A stretch of 64,000 nucleotides of DNA from the IMG/VR virus record IMGVR_UViG_3300021979_000003, positions 32,001 to 96,000 of that record, one strand, 5' to 3'. The translations under genes and the position numbers were made by a program. Each line of letters starts with the position of its first letter. The first letter of the stretch is position 1. Of this stretch, positions 6,331 to 32,041 are shown in pieces. This stretch comes from a virus (Duplodnaviria > Caudoviricetes). The notes under the pieces were generated by a model. It was not told where the DNA came from. It saw nothing but the letters and a program-made list of their open reading frames with translations, and made no database searches.

Positions 6331-6939
6331 TTACGCCACCTTCTTTTGTTTCTTAAGGTCTTCCTTAAGCTTCTTCAAAGTATTCTTGTATTCGGCTTTC
6401 ACCTCATCAAAATCAAGGTTGCTGTCTTTAACAACATCCAGATCAATGTAAATTTCTGGCTCATGGTTCATGCGGTGGATCACAAGGTGTTGCATCATAG
6501 CCAAGGTTGCTGACATCGCTTCGAACCAGTTAGTATCCAATACAGTAGAACGCTTCAGGAAGTCTTGAAGTACTGTATTGTTTTTAGCTTTGTTTGCTTC
6601 TTTCTTGATTTGCTGACACAGAAAATCATACTCAGCAAAGTAACGTGCAGCGGCAAGGTATGACTTATTGTAGCAGGCATTCTCAAGTACAAACCCAAGA
6701 TTGATTTCAATTTGGGTCATACGAACTTGCATAGGATAGATTTCTTGACACACAGGAGTAACATCATCTACATTCCGCTTGTGTTGTTTCACAAGCTTCG
6801 CTCGAAGCTTGTGATCAGGCTCTTCGAGAGTTTTATCAAACTCATTGTCCATACGTGACAAAAGATTCTCACTAAGTTGCTCTTTGATAGTGTCCATCAG
6901 ATTTAGAGCGACAGAATAGTTTTTGATATCGTGTGTCAT
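6331..6939 (-). CDS. hypothetical helical protein
   Basis: ORF with GAGG RBS and upstream promoter. Confidence 0.75.
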   Translation of the reverse strand: MTHDIKNYSVALNLMDTIKEQLSENLLSRMDNEFDKTLEEPDHKLRAKLVKQHKRNVDDVTPVCQEIYPMQVRMTQIEINLGFVLENACYNKSYLAAARYFAEYDFLCQQIKKEANKAKNNTVLQDFLKRSTVLDTNWFEAMSATLAMMQHLVIHRMNHEPEIYIDLDVVKDSNLDFDEVKAEYKNTLKKLKEDLKKQKKVA

Positions 6940-6970
6940 TTCAATTCCTCAATAGTTATATGTTAAGTTA

Positions 6971-6999
6971 ATTATACACATCATGTAATTAAAAGTCGA
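6971..6999 (-). promoter_or_regulatory. sigma70-like promoter
   Basis: TCGACT-17-TATAAT. Confidence 0.55.
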
Positions 7000-7144
7000 G
7001 GGCGGACGGAGGATTCGAACCCACTCATGCAAGATAATTATTCCATGACCGGCCTAGCCATTAGTAACACCTTACACTTATCATTGAAACATTACAATTG
7101 ACCGGTTTAATAATGTTTCTCAGACCAGCCCTAATGCATCCGCC
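7000..7144 (-). ncRNA. 145-nt tRNA-like RNA (acceptor stem, T-loop and large insert; no encoded CCA)
   Basis: GGCGGAT/GTCCGCC acceptor-like stem, GGTTCGAATCC T-arm, TCATG/CATGA variable-arm-like hairpin, GAAACATTA/TAATGTTTC and CATTAG/CTAATG helices. Confidence 0.65.
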
Positions 7145-7152
7145 ATAATTCG

Positions 7153-7620
7153 TTAGCCTTTGATGAATGCTCCCACGACAATAACAGCAATTAAGATAAC
7201 ACCAAAGGTTGTTAGGAATGAAGGCTTTTGTTTCCCTCGCTTTCCATGTTGATCTTTTTTATTAGTAAACCAGTTTCTAGGCTTAATAACAAATTCTTTT
7301 TTAGAACTAAGTTCACCTTTATCTTCGACACGAACATTCCAGTTCATGGCAATAAGGCAATCCTTTACTTCTTTGATGTATTCCGAGTTTCTTGCCACCT
7401 CATCAGTCATAGGAATACCTACCGATAGAGCGACCCATCCGTTTTTGACATAAAACTCATCAATTTTCGCATTGATTCTAGCAATCATTTTAGAGATAGC
7501 TTCTTTTCTCTTCGCTTTCTCTTTGTCTTCCACTTCAGATACAACACTATCTGCGTCAGGCAATGATACATTGTATTGATCTTGCTGGTATACTGAATTT
7601 AAAAGTTCTTCTTGGCTCAT
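7153..7620 (-). CDS. membrane-anchored hypothetical protein
   Basis: C-terminal TM helix preceded by a basic patch. Confidence 0.7.
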   Translation of the reverse strand: MSQEELLNSVYQQDQYNVSLPDADSVVSEVEDKEKAKRKEAISKMIARINAKIDEFYVKNGWVALSVGIPMTDEVARNSEYIKEVKDCLIAMNWNVRVEDKGELSSKKEFVIKPRNWFTNKKDQHGKRGKQKPSFLTTFGVILIAVIVVGAFIKG

Positions 7621-8577: not shown

Positions 8578-8836
8578 TAAAATCCATACGTGTCTTGTGG
8601 TTTACCATAACCCAGATACGTTCGATGATAGCCATAGGCACAATGAAACTGAAAAGGGTAACAGTCCAAATAACAAGGCCCATTGCTAATGAATGTTTAA
8701 CTCCAACTACAATTCCAGCAAGAGTACATCCAATAGCACAGATAACCATCAATGTGATGATCTTTTTTCGAACATCCATATAGAAATTATACTTTTTACG
8801 TGTTCGTTCATGCTTTGTTGCCATTGAATCTGTCAT
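8564..8836 (-). CDS. membrane protein
   Basis: Two TM segments, AGGAG RBS. Confidence 0.7.
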   Translation of the reverse strand: MTDSMATKHERTRKKYNFYMDVRKKIITLMVICAIGCTLAGIVVGVKHSLAMGLVIWTVTLFSFIVPMAIIERIWVMVNHKTRMDFIDGL

Positions 8837-8859
8837 AAGGATGTCTCCTGTTTAACAAT

Positions 8860-8888
8860 ATTATAAAGCATGATTATTTTAAATGCAA
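8860..8888 (-). promoter_or_regulatory. sigma70-like promoter
   Basis: TTGCAT-17-TATAAT. Confidence 0.7.
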
Positions 8889-8912
8889 GAAAAAGGCGGG
8901 ATAAACCCGCCT
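8889..8912 (-). terminator. intrinsic terminator
   Basis: AGGCGGG-TTTAT-CCCGCCT followed by T run. Confidence 0.8.
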
Positions 8913-8934
8913 CATCTTTTTCTCTATTTTACTC

Positions 8935-8963
8935 TAAGTTTCTATTAAGTTTCTATTAAGTTT
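8935..8963. repeat. short tandem repeat, 11-nt unit x about 2.6
   Basis: TAAGTTTCTAT TAAGTTTCTAT TAAGTTT. Confidence 0.8.
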
Positions 8964-9231
8964 TGCGGTAGTTACTTTCCACTACCAAGTCAGTCACGCA
9001 TTAGCTTCTAAGGCTTTTCAGCCTCCGCTGTCTCGTTGAGACTTGCGCTCCCCACTGACTCGTCTATGTATGAAAGGACCGTTGTGGGAATAACGACCTT
9101 CCCCATTCCCTTATCTCTAGTGTGTACGTTGTAAGCTATAAGGAATGGAAAACTCGCCTACACGCCCTTTCTTACTCTTAGTTTAAGGGAACTATAAGAA
9201 AGGTAATTCGTTTCCCTCAATCTTCATATAC

Positions 9232-9260
9232 AGTATACTGCAATATTATTTAGGTTGCAA
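9232..9260 (-). promoter_or_regulatory. sigma70-like promoter for candidate ncRNA
   Basis: TTGCAA-17-TATACT overlapping the end of the upstream CDS. Confidence 0.7.
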
Positions 9261-9770
9261 CCCCTTATCTCGAATTACTTCGTTCATTTTTTCTAACGCT
9301 GAACGAACTTCCTCAATACGATCATTAGGGTGTGTACCGTCATGGTGAAGCTCAGCCGAATAAGGTCTACGAGATAGAACATCTTCACAAAAGCTCAAAG
9401 CATTATATGCTTCAATTAGTGCGTGATCTTCATATTCCTGATCTACCATAACTTTTGGTGGCTCTTCGTCGTCATGTTCGACATCATCAGACCAACACTC
9501 ATCTTCAGTATCGACATAAAAAATATCGTCGTGAAGACCATTAACGATCCTTCCACCAGCACCAACTACCACATAATGATTTGGCATGTTACCGATTTCA
9601 GAAAGAATGGTACAGCTTTTAGCTTTAGTTTTAAGACTAAAACCTAGCATTCTATAATAGTTATCTCGATGGTGTTTATCATAATCATCAGCATCGCAGA
9701 TAACTGATACTGCTATGCCTTTCCTAAGAGCATGTAACGCTCTGTCATGTTCACACAATGGAACCAGCAT
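9246..9770 (-). CDS. hypothetical protein
   Basis: ORF in operon. Confidence 0.7.
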   Translation of the reverse strand: MLVPLCEHDRALHALRKGIAVSVICDADDYDKHHRDNYYRMLGFSLKTKAKSCTILSEIGNMPNHYVVVGAGGRIVNGLHDDIFYVDTEDECWSDDVEHDDEEPPKVMVDQEYEDHALIEAYNALSFCEDVLSRRPYSAELHHDGTHPNDRIEEVRSALEKMNEVIRDKGLQPK

Positions 9771-12260: not shown

Positions 12261-12591
12261 AATGATGGTATACCGTAGTCCATCGATTGGACATTCCCAT
12301 ATTATAAATAATTTCTTCTGCAAGTTTTTCTGGTACTTTGTGGCGTTGTACACACTCTAGGTTACACAGCTTATCAATAATTTCATTTTTAGAAAACGTG
12401 TTACCAACTTCTAACAAGATAGAAAACTTTTCAAATACATCATGTATTTCATTAAACTCTTCTTGTGAAATATTATTTTCGTGGATTGTTCGGATAATAG
12501 GTAAACTACTATCCGAAACCAGCAAATCCACTGTATGCTCTAGGTGCTTGATACGCTCTTTTAGATCGTCTATTTCACTCATTTTAGCCAC
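12247..12591 (-). CDS. hypothetical protein (DUF1878/YhaI-like)
   Basis: ERIKHLEHTVDLLV...ISQEE pattern. Confidence 0.45.
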   Translation of the reverse strand: MAKMSEIDDLKERIKHLEHTVDLLVSDSSLPIIRTIHENNISQEEFNEIHDVFEKFSILLEVGNTFSKNEIIDKLCNLECVQRHKVPEKLAEEIIYNMGMSNRWTTVYHHYVRY

Positions 12592-14819
12592 TCATTGTTG
12601 AATTCTTCTGTGTTCTGAATGAGGCTATTATCAATAACCACATCCGCCGACTCAGCATCATCAGTAACAACCATGTCATTTGCTTTCGCAAACAGGTCAA
12701 AGTAATCATACATTTTCATGAACGATGCATTGATATTCATGATATAGTTGAACTGATTTTCAATAGCACTCATTTGCGAACCGATATTTGATCCAGTCAT
12801 GTTATGGCTAGGCATATCAGCCCACAACATTGTTTTGTTTTCAATGTCGTAGATAAGTGCCAATACTGCCCTTGCGTCACACGTAAGGTCAAAACGATCT
12901 ACTACCTTCAATGGATCATATGTCTTATCGAATACACCATTGTCGCTGCACATAACGCCACAGAATGCATCAAAGCTATCTAGTGACTGATGACTAAATA
13001 CGTTTACATACATCACAACATAACGTGCATTACGGGACTTCAGTTTGTCTAGGTTAATATCAACAAACTCAGTAGCACCGTCAGGCGCTGACGTGAAGTC
13101 ACCAGAATGCTTCGAGTACTTACCATGTATATCATAATACGCACAAGTCTCAATTTGAGTAAAATTGTCATTAACAATAGTAGTAGACAAGTCTAGATCA
13201 ACACGACCACTTTCATCATTTTCCTTCCAATAGGTAAAGAAACGAAGATAGTTAGTATCCTCAGACACTTTCATACTAGAACCACGCTCAGCCTTAAACA
13301 TGCTGTTCTTCATGGAACGCATCTTCATCGGTAGAATACGTGTAGTCAATGAAGGATCGATGAAGATTGATTTACCTTCATACTCAGAGTCTTTAAGCTT
13401 TTCCTTAATGACTTCATCAATCACTGCAATAAGTTTCTTACAGTTTTCTTCGGAAATTTCTTCACGGTCTTTATCAATGACATTACTAAATCCACGCTTA
13501 TTAATATAAACACGAGAAACCGTATAGTTATTAAGACGTGAAGAAAAGTTATCACGTGCACCAACCAGAACCCTCATAGAGGCAGAAGAACCACAGTCCT
13601 TAAATGCATCTGTAATCAGGTCGATAGACTCAGGAAACTTACGAGAGAAGTTATCTAGGTTACGTGCAAAGATACCCGGACGTTGAGACGCCAGCTTTAC
13701 AACTTTACCAATGTTCTTCTCATCAACCAATGCAATTTGAAGTTTACCTTCAAACGTCTTAATTGTTTCCGGCTTGTTAAGGACAGTGTTTACAGCCTTG
13801 AATGAATCTTCGTACTTTTTCTTGAACACGCCAAAGTGAACCGCCATGTTAAGCTCAACCCACTTGTCACGTTCTTTGATCATATCTTCTAGTGGGTTTT
13901 TAATGTTATTCAAGTATGCAGCAACAAGCTTACGTTGGCTATTGGAAAGCTTGAACTTTCCATATTCCTCAGACTTGTTTACTTTTTCTGCTACACGCAT
14001 AACATCTTTAGCAGTTTTAACATTCTTAGAGGTCATATCGAAAACGGTTTTATAATCAAACCTGTCAAGCAGAAGATTGACAACCTTAGATACAGTTTCT
14101 TTAAACGGCATTTCACGATCAATAATCACTTTGATTTCGTCATCCGTTAGAACACTAACCATTTTTGTCAGGTCAAGTTCTTGTTGTGGAGACATACCAG
14201 TTTTGGATTCAACGCAAGAACCAACATAAGAGAAAAGTTGATCTTGTGTGATTAGACCGATTTCTTTCAGACGTGTGTTAACACTGAAGTTGCTTGTTTT
14301 ACCAATAGTCAACTCAACATCATACGCTGTGTATTCACAGATAGGACATTCTGATTGTGTCATGTAATCAGCAACACGATGACCACAGTCTAGAGTTTTC
14401 AATTCATTTACTTCGTCAGAAGCATCTGAAAACTGCTCAAGAAAGTCAACCAGTTCATTATTAACCAAGCGGCTATTTCGAATAACATCTGTTTTATCAA
14501 CAGCATGGTGCGGGAAACCTTCATACAAAGGCTTGAACACAACATAGGCACCTACCATTTCGGTAAGAGTTTTGAATGTAACATCTACCGTTTCTTCAAA
14601 CTCTTTCTTAGTAACATAACGAAGATGAGTCATGGCATCATCAGAAAGATAGAAGCCAAGGTTGATAAGCTCATGGTTAAATGCCTGAAGCATATGCTCT
14701 TCAACACGAACAGACTTTGTATTGTCTCCCGCTACTAACGACAGACGTGCTTCAATTGCGATTTCATTAAAAACTTTATTACGCTTAGACATTAGTAACT
14801 TCTCCGTTGACATATTCAT
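12579..14819 (-). CDS. Prok-RING_4 / TROVE-like repeats / TerD-domain protein
   Basis: LDCGH...CPIC RING-like finger, long helical middle with RPGIFARNLD, C-terminal TerD-like VDLDLS...HSGDFTSAPDGATEFVDINL. Confidence 0.75.
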   Translation of the reverse strand: MNMSTEKLLMSKRNKVFNEIAIEARLSLVAGDNTKSVRVEEHMLQAFNHELINLGFYLSDDAMTHLRYVTKKEFEETVDVTFKTLTEMVGAYVVFKPLYEGFPHHAVDKTDVIRNSRLVNNELVDFLEQFSDASDEVNELKTLDCGHRVADYMTQSECPICEYTAYDVELTIGKTSNFSVNTRLKEIGLITQDQLFSYVGSCVESKTGMSPQQELDLTKMVSVLTDDEIKVIIDREMPFKETVSKVVNLLLDRFDYKTVFDMTSKNVKTAKDVMRVAEKVNKSEEYGKFKLSNSQRKLVAAYLNNIKNPLEDMIKERDKWVELNMAVHFGVFKKKYEDSFKAVNTVLNKPETIKTFEGKLQIALVDEKNIGKVVKLASQRPGIFARNLDNFSRKFPESIDLITDAFKDCGSSASMRVLVGARDNFSSRLNNYTVSRVYINKRGFSNVIDKDREEISEENCKKLIAVIDEVIKEKLKDSEYEGKSIFIDPSLTTRILPMKMRSMKNSMFKAERGSSMKVSEDTNYLRFFTYWKENDESGRVDLDLSTTIVNDNFTQIETCAYYDIHGKYSKHSGDFTSAPDGATEFVDINLDKLKSRNARYVVMYVNVFSHQSLDSFDAFCGVMCSDNGVFDKTYDPLKVVDRFDLTCDARAVLALIYDIENKTMLWADMPSHNMTGSNIGSQMSAIENQFNYIMNINASFMKMYDYFDLFAKANDMVVTDDAESADVVIDNSLIQNTEEFNNEWLK

Positions 14820-22689: not shown

Positions 22690-22712
22690 TATTTATTAAG
22701 GAGTATACATTT

Positions 22713-23060
22713 ATGAAAGCTGGTGACATTATACCACAGAAAGAAAAGATGGGTAAAATAATATCTCATATTGTTAAAAACATAGACAAGGATGGGAAAA
22801 CTGTCTTTACTGGTCAGGAATTGAAAGAGAAGTATGACTATGACTTTATTCATAGTGGGCTTATAGTTACAGTCGATAAGAACATTGATCCATCGCCTGA
22901 CAGAGAATATAAGGTAGATGAGTTCTGGGGTAATGAAATTAGAATTGATATCGCATCAAAGGGTCTATCCAACTCCCAGATCAAAGAGATATTGAAAAAA
23001 GCTTTTGATGAGTATGTAGAAGTTATAAATCGAAAAAGTCAGAAATACGAACAGTTATAA
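22713..23060 (+). CDS. hypothetical protein
   Basis: ORF with AAGGAG RBS and late promoter. Confidence 0.75.
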   Translation: MKAGDIIPQKEKMGKIISHIVKNIDKDGKTVFTGQELKEKYDYDFIHSGLIVTVDKNIDPSPDREYKVDEFWGNEIRIDIASKGLSNSQIKEILKKAFDEYVEVINRKSQKYEQL

Positions 23061-30362: not shown

Positions 30363-30596
30363 TTACCTTTTTGTAAACCTGAATTTTTGAGGGTTACGAT
30401 TTTTAATAGCAGACAGTAGACGCTTTTCCAACAAAGCAGCCGCTTCTTCCCCGTACTTTTCTTCAATCTCTTCAATTAAATTAATACTAGAATTAATTAC
30501 GTGATCTGCTCGTGTTTTAATAACAGCTTCCGAAAGTCGGCTACGGCCATTATCCATTAAGCAATCTAAGATTCCGCTACTCATGTTTCTTCCCAA
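30363..30596 (-). CDS. hypothetical protein
   Basis: ORF in operon. Confidence 0.7.
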   Translation of the reverse strand: MGRNMSSGILDCLMDNGRSRLSEAVIKTRADHVINSSINLIEEIEEKYGEEAAALLEKRLLSAIKNRNPQKFRFTKR

Positions 30597-32041
30597 TCCT
30601 CATCGTCGCCGCTTATAAATCCTCGTAGTCTGGCAAGCTTATTGCTTCCCATTCCTGCTGCAAGTTCGTTAGGTAGTTTAGCACCTGTCTCGATATCAAC
30701 AGCTTCGTATTCTTCATCGTCGGCGTTTAACGCATTTTGTATTTCGTTATATTGTTTCTCAGTCCCACTCATCTGAGTTTTAGACGAGTTTGAACTACTC
30801 ATGTATGTATTTATGTTCGCTAAGAAATCTGGGTCATCCTTAATCCTCATACACTCACTGAGGAACTTCAATCGTACACGTCTTCCTGTACCACTACTGT
30901 TACGTGTTTTAAGTACTTGAAGCTCATAAGCACCTTTCTCTCGCATTGCATCAGTTACAATAATACCTAGTACCAAGTCTGCGGTATTGATCTTTGAGAT
31001 ACCACCAGCAATATGACTATGATCAAGGTCATCGTTACCAACTGCGGTACGGTTAAGCTGTGATGCAGTTAAACACAATATATTAAATTCTTGCATCATA
31101 TTACGTAGTTCTTCACTCACGGCTTTATCTTTTCCAAAGGTGTCACCAACTGATACTTTCTGTGCTGGCGATAACAGGTCCAAATAGTCAATAGCAATAA
31201 CGTCTGGTTTAATACCTTTTGTTTGAATATAATCTTTAATGTAAGCCTTCACTTCCGTTGTTGGTGTGCCACTAGGCATGAACTTGATATTCATTTGACC
31301 GCCATATTTCTCACCAGCATTGCGAATTGCCATGTCAACCGAATCTAGGTTGTCATATAGACTACTGGTTGTTTTCTCAAGATACATAGCGTCCATACGT
31401 CTCGCACACAATTCAGGGTGTAGCTCCAACGTGATATAAAGAACGTTCTTACCTAGCTTCCAGTGATCAATACAATTGTTCTGAAGCATTAGTGACTTAC
31501 CAGTACCAGAGCCACCAGCATAGATAACAAGATCGCCATAGTTGAGCTTACCAACAACTCTATCTAGAGCATCAAAGCATGTGGTGATATTACCACTTCT
31601 ATCAAGAATATTTTGTAGGCGCTGCTTCACGTTCTCGTGATATGGTAAGCCATGGTCTTCAATCAATCGTGTCTGCATAGCTTCTTTAATAAGGTTCTCG
31701 ATTGCACCATAGTCTTCGGAGCCTAGATACTCGGAGCTTTTCACAACTGCATTCTCCAAAGCCTTGTGTAGACAAAACTTTGGGTATTCTTCCATAAACC
31801 ATTTTTCAATAGCAAAATCTGTTTTTGATGGAACTTTTATTTCAATACCCGTTTTGGATTTCAAATACTCTGGGTCAGGCAGTCCACTATACTTGTCGCT
31901 ATAGTCAATGATTTCATTTACAGCTTTTCTAATTCTTGGATCAAAATGTTCTGGTTTGGTGACACTTCTTACACGAGTGAAAATATCACTATTAGAAAGT
32001 AATACGCCGATATATAGTTTTTGTAATTCTAAATCGTACAT
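30581..32041 (-). CDS. replicative DNA helicase (T4 gp41/DnaB-like)
   Basis: Walker A GGSGTGKS, YITLEL, IDYLDL, TASQLNR, HIAGGISK. Confidence 0.92.
   Translation of the reverse strand: MYDLELQKLYIGVLLSNSDIFTRVRSVTKPEHFDPRIRKAVNEIIDYSDKYSGLPDPEYLKSKTGIEIKVPSKTDFAIEKWFMEEYPKFCLHKALENAVVKSSEYLGSEDYGAIENLIKEAMQTRLIEDHGLPYHENVKQRLQNILDRSGNITTCFDALDRVVGKLNYGDLVIYAGGSGTGKSLMLQNNCIDHWKLGKNVLYITLELHPELCARRMDAMYLEKTTSSLYDNLDSVDMAIRNAGEKYGGQMNIKFMPSGTPTTEVKAYIKDYIQTKGIKPDVIAIDYLDLLSPAQKVSVGDTFGKDKAVSEELRNMMQEFNILCLTASQLNRTAVGNDDLDHSHIAGGISKINTADLVLGIIVTDAMREKGAYELQVLKTRNSSGTGRRVRLKFLSECMRIKDDPDFLANINTYMSSSNSSKTQMSGTEKQYNEIQNALNADDEEYEAVDIETGAKLPNELAAGMGSNKLARLRGFISGDDEDWEET

Follow-up and report, generated by a model that had tools for sequence, protein, structure and literature searches.

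What is encoded by the ~410-nt gap that runs, on the minus strand, from the stop codon of a 174-aa open reading frame (ORF) at position 9246 to the ATG of a 90-aa ORF at position 8836? The gap lies in a stretch of 64,000 nt (positions 32,001 to 96,000 of the IMG/VR virus record IMGVR_UViG_3300021979_000003), denoted here as the window, and an earlier note on this DNA had proposed that it harbors an autonomously transcribed, highly structured RNA of a new phage non-coding class. Comparison with homologous loci leaves little doubt that the gap specifies a genuine RNA whose structure is under selection. Judged by the signals that border it, the locus would be a single-copy non-coding RNA gene of ~340 nt on the minus strand, found in a small clade of uncultured giant phages. 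The full account given below, including a mechanism in which the RNA acts in trans by binding a partner, is favored with modest confidence.

The boundary signals named in the earlier note are all present: a non-coding gap richer in GC (0.43-0.455) than its flanks (0.335-0.385), a promoter-like TTGCAA-17-TATACT at one end, an intrinsic terminator at the other, and a fresh promoter ahead of the next gene. The -35 hexamer of the first promoter falls within the last codons of the upstream 174-aa ORF, and the 5' end of the RNA, placed from this site, would lie near 9226-9224. In L015, the most divergent of the homologous versions, TTGATA-17-TATACT is found at a new position, directly ahead of a shortened RNA. 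In the terminator, a T run comes after a stem of 8 pairs (6 G-C), which is compensated in L015 (GCGAGG/CCUCGC). Every version retains the promoter of the next gene, in the form TTG[CT]-N17-TATAAT or TAAAAT; as a separate promoter, it marks the end of the RNA as that of a distinct unit. Sites of the type TTGCA-N17-19-TATA[AC]T occur just 7 times in the 239-kb record, and 2 of the 7 flank the RNA. Several further sigma-70-like sites lie nearby in the same minus-strand block, as would suit an early region.

The protein encoded directly upstream has full-length homologues at 60-93% identity. The homologue set consists of the fetched contigs that carry this full-length gene (174-180 aa) and continue past it; in every one of them, a gap is found at this position (345-417 nt) and the gene order is the same. 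These gaps align end to end and yield seven distinct versions, all metagenomic. A scan of metagenomes with a three-motif pattern added two near-copies, L020 (resembling L007) and L023 (resembling L018). The other six of its eight matches are chance hits, which are not matched by R1, a covariance model of the 170-nt core that re-aligns eight sequences at 124-197 bits. L015 is devoid of the 5' domain and of one hairpin and retains the core.

Several lines of evidence indicate that a structure is maintained in this RNA. The minus strand reaches a minimum free energy of -101.6 kcal/mol (z = -3.54), a value as good as which none of 100 shuffles attains; for the plus strand, z is -2.74. Of the 71 pairs predicted by RNAalifold, 25 show compensatory changes. 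In the core alignment, 98.4% of 308 cells (one pair in one aligned sequence each) hold standard pairs, compared with 87.8% in shuffles, none of 500 reaching the observed value, and 37-53% in controls with slid partners. The compensatory changes on which the proposal of an RNA fold depended are found as well: two-sided changes are observed in 20 of the 39 core pairs, versus 8.2 in shuffles and 0-5 in slid controls. The core alignment was fitted to the model and hence favors structure; a MAFFT alignment recovers the same helices, and an unbiased scan for stacked complementary columns ranks the same helices first. G.U pairs account for 50 of 279 paired cells (18%), and pairing amounts to 98.2% on the minus strand versus 80.6% on the opposite one, which bears out the selection at the RNA level that had been read from such pairs. 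Because the G.U pairs render the pairing strand-specific, a DNA-level palindrome is excluded and the minus strand is fixed. Identity to the window version ranges from 0.61 to 0.95 in the RNA, far above the 0.35-0.75 measured for four-fold synonymous sites in the neighboring gene. The versions have no ORF in common, and from its reading frames the RNA is judged to be non-coding. A 32-aa ORF at 9106-9008 had been considered as a small gene and was rejected, being frame-shifted or lacking a start codon in the relatives.

The fold is summarized in Table 1. All complementary segments listed in the earlier note are present in the sequence. The fold agrees with that of the note in most helices and extends it by P1 of the 5' pseudoknot (of which only P2 had been seen), by P3, and by a kink-turn.

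Table 1. Features of the RNA gene and its borders, in 5' to 3' order of the minus strand (window coordinates)
Feature	Position	Strand	Basis or remark
Upstream 174-aa ORF	9770-9246	minus	ORF list
Promoter-like TTGCAA-17-TATACT	9260-9232	minus	consensus scan; hexamers kept in all versions
5' H-type pseudoknot, P1 (9218-9210 with 9192-9184) and P2 (9203-9194 with 9175-9166)	9218-9166	minus	
P3, 5' strand GAGUUUU with GAAACUU of the tail	9155-9149 with 8942-8936	minus	RNAalifold
P4 helix (9148-9138 with 9114-9103) and 23-nt loop L4	9148-9103	minus	
P5 hairpin (9102-9092 with 9083-9072), loop AUUCCCAC (9091-9084)	9102-9072	minus	
Conserved joiner AUACAUAGACGA, H1 5' strand GUC (9059-9057), invariant GUGGGGA (9055-9049)	9071-9049	minus	
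Three-way junction domain P7/P8/P9 with P10 and H1 3' strand	9048-8993	minus	
P7	9048-9044 with 9000-8996	minus	two-sided changes in 3/5 pairs, 100% paired
P8 hairpin	9042-9030	minus	GUUC/GAAC in L015, missing in L017
P9	9029-9027 with 9005-9003	minus	100% paired
Kink-turn: GGA 9026-9024, 3-nt bulge 9011-9009, GAA 9008-9006	between P9 and P10	minus	
P10, loop GAAA	9023-9020 with 9015-9012	minus	two-sided changes in 3/4 pairs, 100% paired
H1 3' strand GAC	8995-8993	minus	
Joiner UGACUUG and P11 hairpin (8985-8981 with 8972-8968, loop GGAAAGUAA)	8992-8966	minus	
Purine-rich tail, 11-nt repeat AAUAGAAACUU, P3 3' strand (8942-8936), several UAGA	8965-8914	minus	
Intrinsic terminator GAGGCGGG-UUUAU-CCCGCCUU and U run	8913-8888, stem 8913-8893	minus	scan, conserved
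Promoter-like TTGCAT-17-TATAAT for the next gene (ATG 8836)	8888-8860	minus	outside the RNA

P4 and P5 are the best-supported helices, with 7 covarying pairs each. In P4, which corresponds to the CCAUUCCUUAU helix of the earlier note, two-sided changes affect 7 of 9 pairs and 98.6% of the cells are paired; in the 3' half of its loop, ACAC-ACUAGAGAU is conserved. P5, the hairpin described before around the loop AUUCCCAC, is likewise retained with compensatory changes (7 of 11 pairs), and its loop is near-invariant and fully invariant from UCCCAC on. This loop could engage in a further interaction: UUCCCAC is complementary to the GUGGGGA downstream, both sides are invariant, and 55 of 56 cells are paired, so that the pseudoknot suggested before is possible on all these counts and unsupported by covariation. 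It is regarded as a probable second pseudoknot, termed PK2.

The core is closed by P3, a long-range helix with 47 of 56 cells paired, which in L015 occurs in a shifted 5-bp register (UAGUU/AACUA) with one two-sided change; support for P3 is moderate. Upstream of it, P1 and P2 are interleaved and share no nucleotides, and therefore constitute an H-type pseudoknot. In register, 42 of 48 cells are paired in P1 and 47 of 48 in P2, versus 18-39 of 48 when slid; double changes are found at four P1 positions and at one P2 position. The CCUUUCUUA/UAAGAAAGG helix of the earlier note is among those kept with compensatory changes. The 5' pseudoknot is an accessory domain, and L015 does without it.

In the junction domain, GCGCA/UGCGU and GUCUC/GAGAC are kept with compensatory changes, as is GGUAGU/ACUACC further downstream. 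AGGCU/AGCCU was proposed one pair too long: GGCU/AGCC is kept and compensated, but the outer A-U pair is not conserved. Two other elements did not survive the comparison. The UUAG-AAG-CUAA hairpin is not conserved, and the 7-bp helix AGUCAGU/ACUGACU, thought to close the multiloop, is fully paired in 3 of the 7 versions only. It is replaced by H1, a helix of 3-4 bp beside P7 that is kept in all seven versions: GUC/GAC (window), GUCC/GGAC (L014), ACC/GGU (L017), and GCC/GGC (L015). P11, in which 48 of 49 cells are paired and A-U pairs change to G-C, is an accessory part, as is the joiner UGACUUG; L015 lacks both. The tandem repeat of the tail was confirmed by Tandem Repeats Finder (array 8963-8935, 2.6 copies, 100% match); it is present in 1-3 copies across the versions. 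UAGA occurs 5-7 times per RNA, where ~2.3 occurrences are expected. The tail motif TAGAAACTT was considered as a seed for phage targets and dismissed: its 9 genome copies, on both strands and 2 of them in the RNA itself, were judged near chance.

Between P9 and P10, the strands of the window version (9029-9003) read AGCC-NNN-GAA-GCU on the bulged side and AGC-GGA-GGCU on the opposite side. The standard kink-turn is defined by a 3-nt bulge followed, on the same strand, by G and A, whose tandem G.A/A.G pairs with GA of the opposite strand adjoin a Watson-Crick C helix (PMC4382518). The same arrangement is found here, namely a 3-nt bulge, tandem G.A and A.G letters that are invariant in all seven versions, and the flanking paired helices P9 and P10, the latter covarying; the bulge itself varies (UUA, GUA, AUC, AUA). 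Six of the seven versions have A.G at 3b.3n and L015 has A.A, which places the element in the metal-ion-folding class. Kink-turns of this class carry a G at 3n, and A.G at 3b.3n is the best combination for folding in Mg2+ alone (McPhee et al., PMC4382518). The A.G type is typical of kink-turns with tertiary contacts in riboswitches and rRNA, and protein-dependent ones, e.g. that of U4, differ from it (PMC4382518). The P9-P10 arm would thus hold a Kt-7-type kink-turn, the kinked conformation being a prediction from these nucleotides. Mimicry of the ribosomal L11-binding region, considered on account of a shared UUAGAAGC, was rejected, as its UUA turned out to be the kink-turn bulge, which varies.

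The RNA does not correspond to a described family. A search of the whole window against Rfam 15 gave no match at the gathering score, which covers tmRNA, RNase P, 6S RNA, introns, HEARO, raiA, GOLLD, ROOL, riboswitches, and small ribozymes. When E values up to 10 were admitted for 8800-9320, the best match was sroD with 22.6 bits (gathering score 50); sroD and most of the other thirteen weak matches lie on the tail or the terminator, several of them on the opposite strand, and three touch the core. The match to PrrB_RsmZ, at 15.9 bits, is far below its gathering score of 44. ARAGORN reported no tRNA or tmRNA gene in the window, and the RNA contains no T-loop motif. Group I and group II introns interrupt a host gene and possess a conserved catalytic core; here, both neighboring ORFs are complete and distinct from each other in every contig, and no intron model matches. 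The absence of a known match, even at permissive thresholds, and the assignment to a new class of phage non-coding RNAs thus stand as far as Rfam 15 and ARAGORN can test them. The RNA represents a new family when set against the named families, a comparison outside of which the unnamed candidates of PMC10690425 lie. These comprise 10,006 candidate viral RNAs (Fremin et al., PMC10690425).

How might such an RNA act? Transcription by the host sigma-70 RNA polymerase would start near 9225 and stop at the intrinsic terminator near 8888. The RNA lies among small genes preceded by sigma-70-like promoters, a setting that suggests early expression. The 5' H-type pseudoknot, dispensable in one lineage, probably shields the 5' end. 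The core closed by P3 is predicted to comprise P4, P5, PK2, H1, and the three-way junction with its kink-turn arm. A compact tertiary fold, as opposed to a linear antisense RNA, is favored by the many invariant unpaired nucleotides, by the supported and the probable pseudoknots, and by the self-folding type of the kink-turn. It is supposed that this folded core acts in trans by offering a specific binding surface to a partner from host or phage, which could be a protein or a small ligand. The tail, with its UAGA and (ARN)-like repeats, and the U run of the terminator may serve as a landing pad for a chaperone, e.g. Hfq. The repeats (UAGA, AAUAGAAAC) and the A-R-N-like triplets before the terminator U run are reminiscent of CsrB/RsmZ sponges and of class II Hfq-dependent small RNAs. 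Unlike the sponges, the RNA shows no GGA-in-loop repeats and consists for the most part of a tightly structured core, which sponges lack.

Several points weigh against this account. The seven versions stem from a single lineage, and the shuffle control ignores their relatedness. PK2, P9, and most of P3 are devoid of covariation. In six versions, L015 being the exception, GUGGGGA has an alternative partner in UGACUUG, with which it could build the non-canonical stem of a second kink-turn. The existence of the transcript, its two ends, and the time of its synthesis are read from sequence signals only; a terminator scan revealed none between the 174-aa ORF and the RNA, so that read-through followed by processing could also produce it. 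The neighboring genes all encode proteins of unknown function and point to no partner. The N-terminal domain of the upstream protein yielded no significant fold match and no RNA-binding fold, and a family search of the available half of the genome revealed no member of the L7Ae family.

The alternatives rank in the order ribozyme or ligand-sensing RNA, self-assembling RNA, cis-acting leader, and 3' untranslated element. The first of them, the most probable of these alternatives, is unlikely. In this view, the pseudoknotted core, braced by the kink-turn, would provide an active site or binding pocket, and the RNA would act by chemistry or by capturing a ligand, not as a platform for proteins. 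Many invariant unpaired nucleotides indeed cluster around H1, PK2, and P7. With A.G at 3b.3n, the kink-turn falls into the protein-independent folding class known from riboswitch aptamers as typical, and no protein partner is evident nearby. SAM-I-type aptamers resemble the RNA in a Kt-7-like kink-turn with A.G at 3b.3n, a candidate pseudoknot between loop and junction, and invariant junction nucleotides, but differ in the order of their helices. Against such a function, neither a ribozyme nor a riboswitch family matches at E up to 10, a conserved cleavage-site signature was not recognized, and no expression platform overlaps the core; a fresh promoter precedes the next gene.

GOLLD and ROOL are large structured RNAs of ~600-800 nt with unknown function that are often found in phages beside tRNA genes. 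The present RNA is comparable to them in being phage-borne and located near tRNA-like genes, in its multi-helix architecture with pseudoknots, in its own (here predicted) transcription signals, and in its unknown function. It is set apart by its length of ~340 nt, by a different architecture, by the lack of an Rfam match, and by its restriction to a narrow clade of uncultured giant phages. Self-assembly into multimers, as in large ornate phage RNAs, would demand that UUCCCAC/GUGGGGA or GAGUUUU and the AGAAACUU tail motifs pair between molecules. Both 7-mers are invariant and no covariation fixes their pairing within one molecule, and the tail offers 1-3 copies of the P3 partner motif. The intramolecular pairings, however, are sterically plausible and are the predicted ones, and the tail motif is present in about one copy in several versions, which makes this alternative improbable. 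A further comparison, offered as a lead, is with the pRNA of phage phi29, a phage-encoded structured RNA with its own promoter that oligomerizes by loop-loop pairing. Both are stand-alone structured phage RNAs with a multi-helix junction and complementary segments, invariant in the present RNA, whose pairing may be intra- or intermolecular. They share no homology, the RNA described here is twice the size, and packaging genes are absent from its vicinity in the available part of the genome.

A cis-acting leader, riboswitch-like or attenuating, that controls read-through into the small membrane-protein genes downstream is to be considered in view of the arrangement: promoter, structured RNA, terminator, and gene follow each other on one strand in the order of an attenuating leader. 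Yet the terminator is separated from the last core helix by an unpaired, purine-rich tail of ~55 nt, and a scan for stacked pairs found no conserved alternative pairing, such as an antiterminator, with its arms. Moreover, a promoter with a conserved -10 element TATAAT stands between terminator and gene in all versions, and no riboswitch family matches. Lacking a coupled expression platform and followed by a conserved promoter, the RNA does not appear to be a typical riboswitch leader, and a role in cis is given as little credence as self-assembly.

Slightly less credit still is due to the idea that the RNA is a 3' untranslated extension stabilizing the mRNA of the upstream operon, or is processed from it. 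The missing terminator behind the 174-aa ORF and the location of the -35 hexamer inside coding sequence would be in line with this. The promoter hexamers, however, are invariant while the codons around them change, L015 possesses a new promoter right before its shortened RNA, and a stabilizer would not need a covarying, pseudoknotted core of ~200 nt with invariant loops. Finally, a DNA-level element (a replication origin, a packaging or recombination site) or what is left of a mobile intron would suit a GC-richer non-coding island with repeats and inverted repeats, but is hardly credible given the strand-specific pairing through G.U, the compensatory changes that preserve RNA helices, the lack of an intron family match, and the intact, unsplit flanking ORFs.

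Besides the favored partner-binding RNA, a more far-reaching possibility is tentatively entertained, which we consider doubtful: the RNA might represent a new class of large RNAs folding free of protein, be it a ribozyme, a ligand sensor, or a self-assembling RNA, made early in infection by giant marine phages. In that case, the core with its pseudoknot and kink-turn would carry out chemistry or trap a host molecule, beyond being a scaffold for proteins. Large RNAs of complex fold without known homology are rare, and several of those found earlier have proved to be ribozymes, riboswitches, or unusual assemblies. The RNA is new as a family, and no new kind of biology is demonstrated by it; its defined boundaries, the seven variants, the structure backed by covariation, the kink-turn, and the pseudoknots provide handles for structural study.

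As far as visible, the RNA appears to be confined to one sub-lineage, where it co-occurs with the full-length 174-180-aa gene. In its own genome, the RNA gene is single-copy according to R1. A weak match of the core model at 22701-22808 on the plus strand (16.2 bits, E 0.036) is taken as chance. With the gap as query, BLASTN returned no match among 50,697 phage records, and exact-motif scans of IMG/VR gave none either; the single match in a genome collection, in Rothia, is not matched by R1 and was dismissed as chance. R1 found no RNA in a close relative with an 89% identical helicase, the syntenic region of which is packed with ORFs and contains neither the 174-aa gene nor the RNA. It likewise gave no match in Salicola phage SCTP-2, the closest named relative, or in 13 more distant relatives from IMG/VR, all of them fragments. 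The loci of distant single-domain homologues of the upstream protein show neither the gap nor the RNA.

The source virus is a giant phage. Its 239-kb record, with a completeness of 54% as estimated by CheckV, encodes tail-fibre domains, a DnaB-like helicase, and a UvsW-like helicase with an intein (Pfam). The DnaB-like primase-helicase (30581-32041, minus strand) is 56% identical to the counterpart of Salicola phage SCTP-2 (440 kb) and ~40% identical to those of Atu_ph07 and PA5oct. Because a 98%-identical copy of this helicase is recorded on a contig of 461,710 bases, accompanied by near-identical proteins, the complete genome is probably larger than 400 kb. Related contigs originate from marine and other metagenomes.

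Two domains (residues ~1-93 and ~110-165) are fused in the 174-aa protein encoded upstream of the RNA, and each of them occurs singly as a protein of 70-110 aa in other phages; the full-length forms fall into one cluster at 50% identity. AlphaFold predicts a small barrel for the N-terminal domain (predicted local distance difference test score 93). The protein was considered as an L7Ae-like kink-turn partner and rejected, the barrel being without a significant fold match and the sequence without a match in the PDB.

A conserved tRNA-like element is located 1.9 kb downstream of the RNA, at 7001-7144 (minus strand) in a gap spanning 6939-7153. It combines an acceptor stem (GGCGGAU.../...GUCCGCC) with a canonical T arm (GGGUUCGAAUCCUCC) and contains a long insert; it is called by neither ARAGORN nor Rfam, and is kept in L007 and L014 with varying inner parts. 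Situated in an early-type region of a giant phage, beside non-canonical tRNA-like RNAs, the RNA may be part of the takeover of the host. Elsewhere in the window, a 746-aa protein (12579-14819, minus strand) matches no Pfam family at E up to 0.001. The UvsW/ResIII-like helicase ORF (40647-42095, minus strand) ends in a C-terminal Hint/intein splicing domain (Pfam), which suggests that this helicase gene is interrupted by an intein or split.

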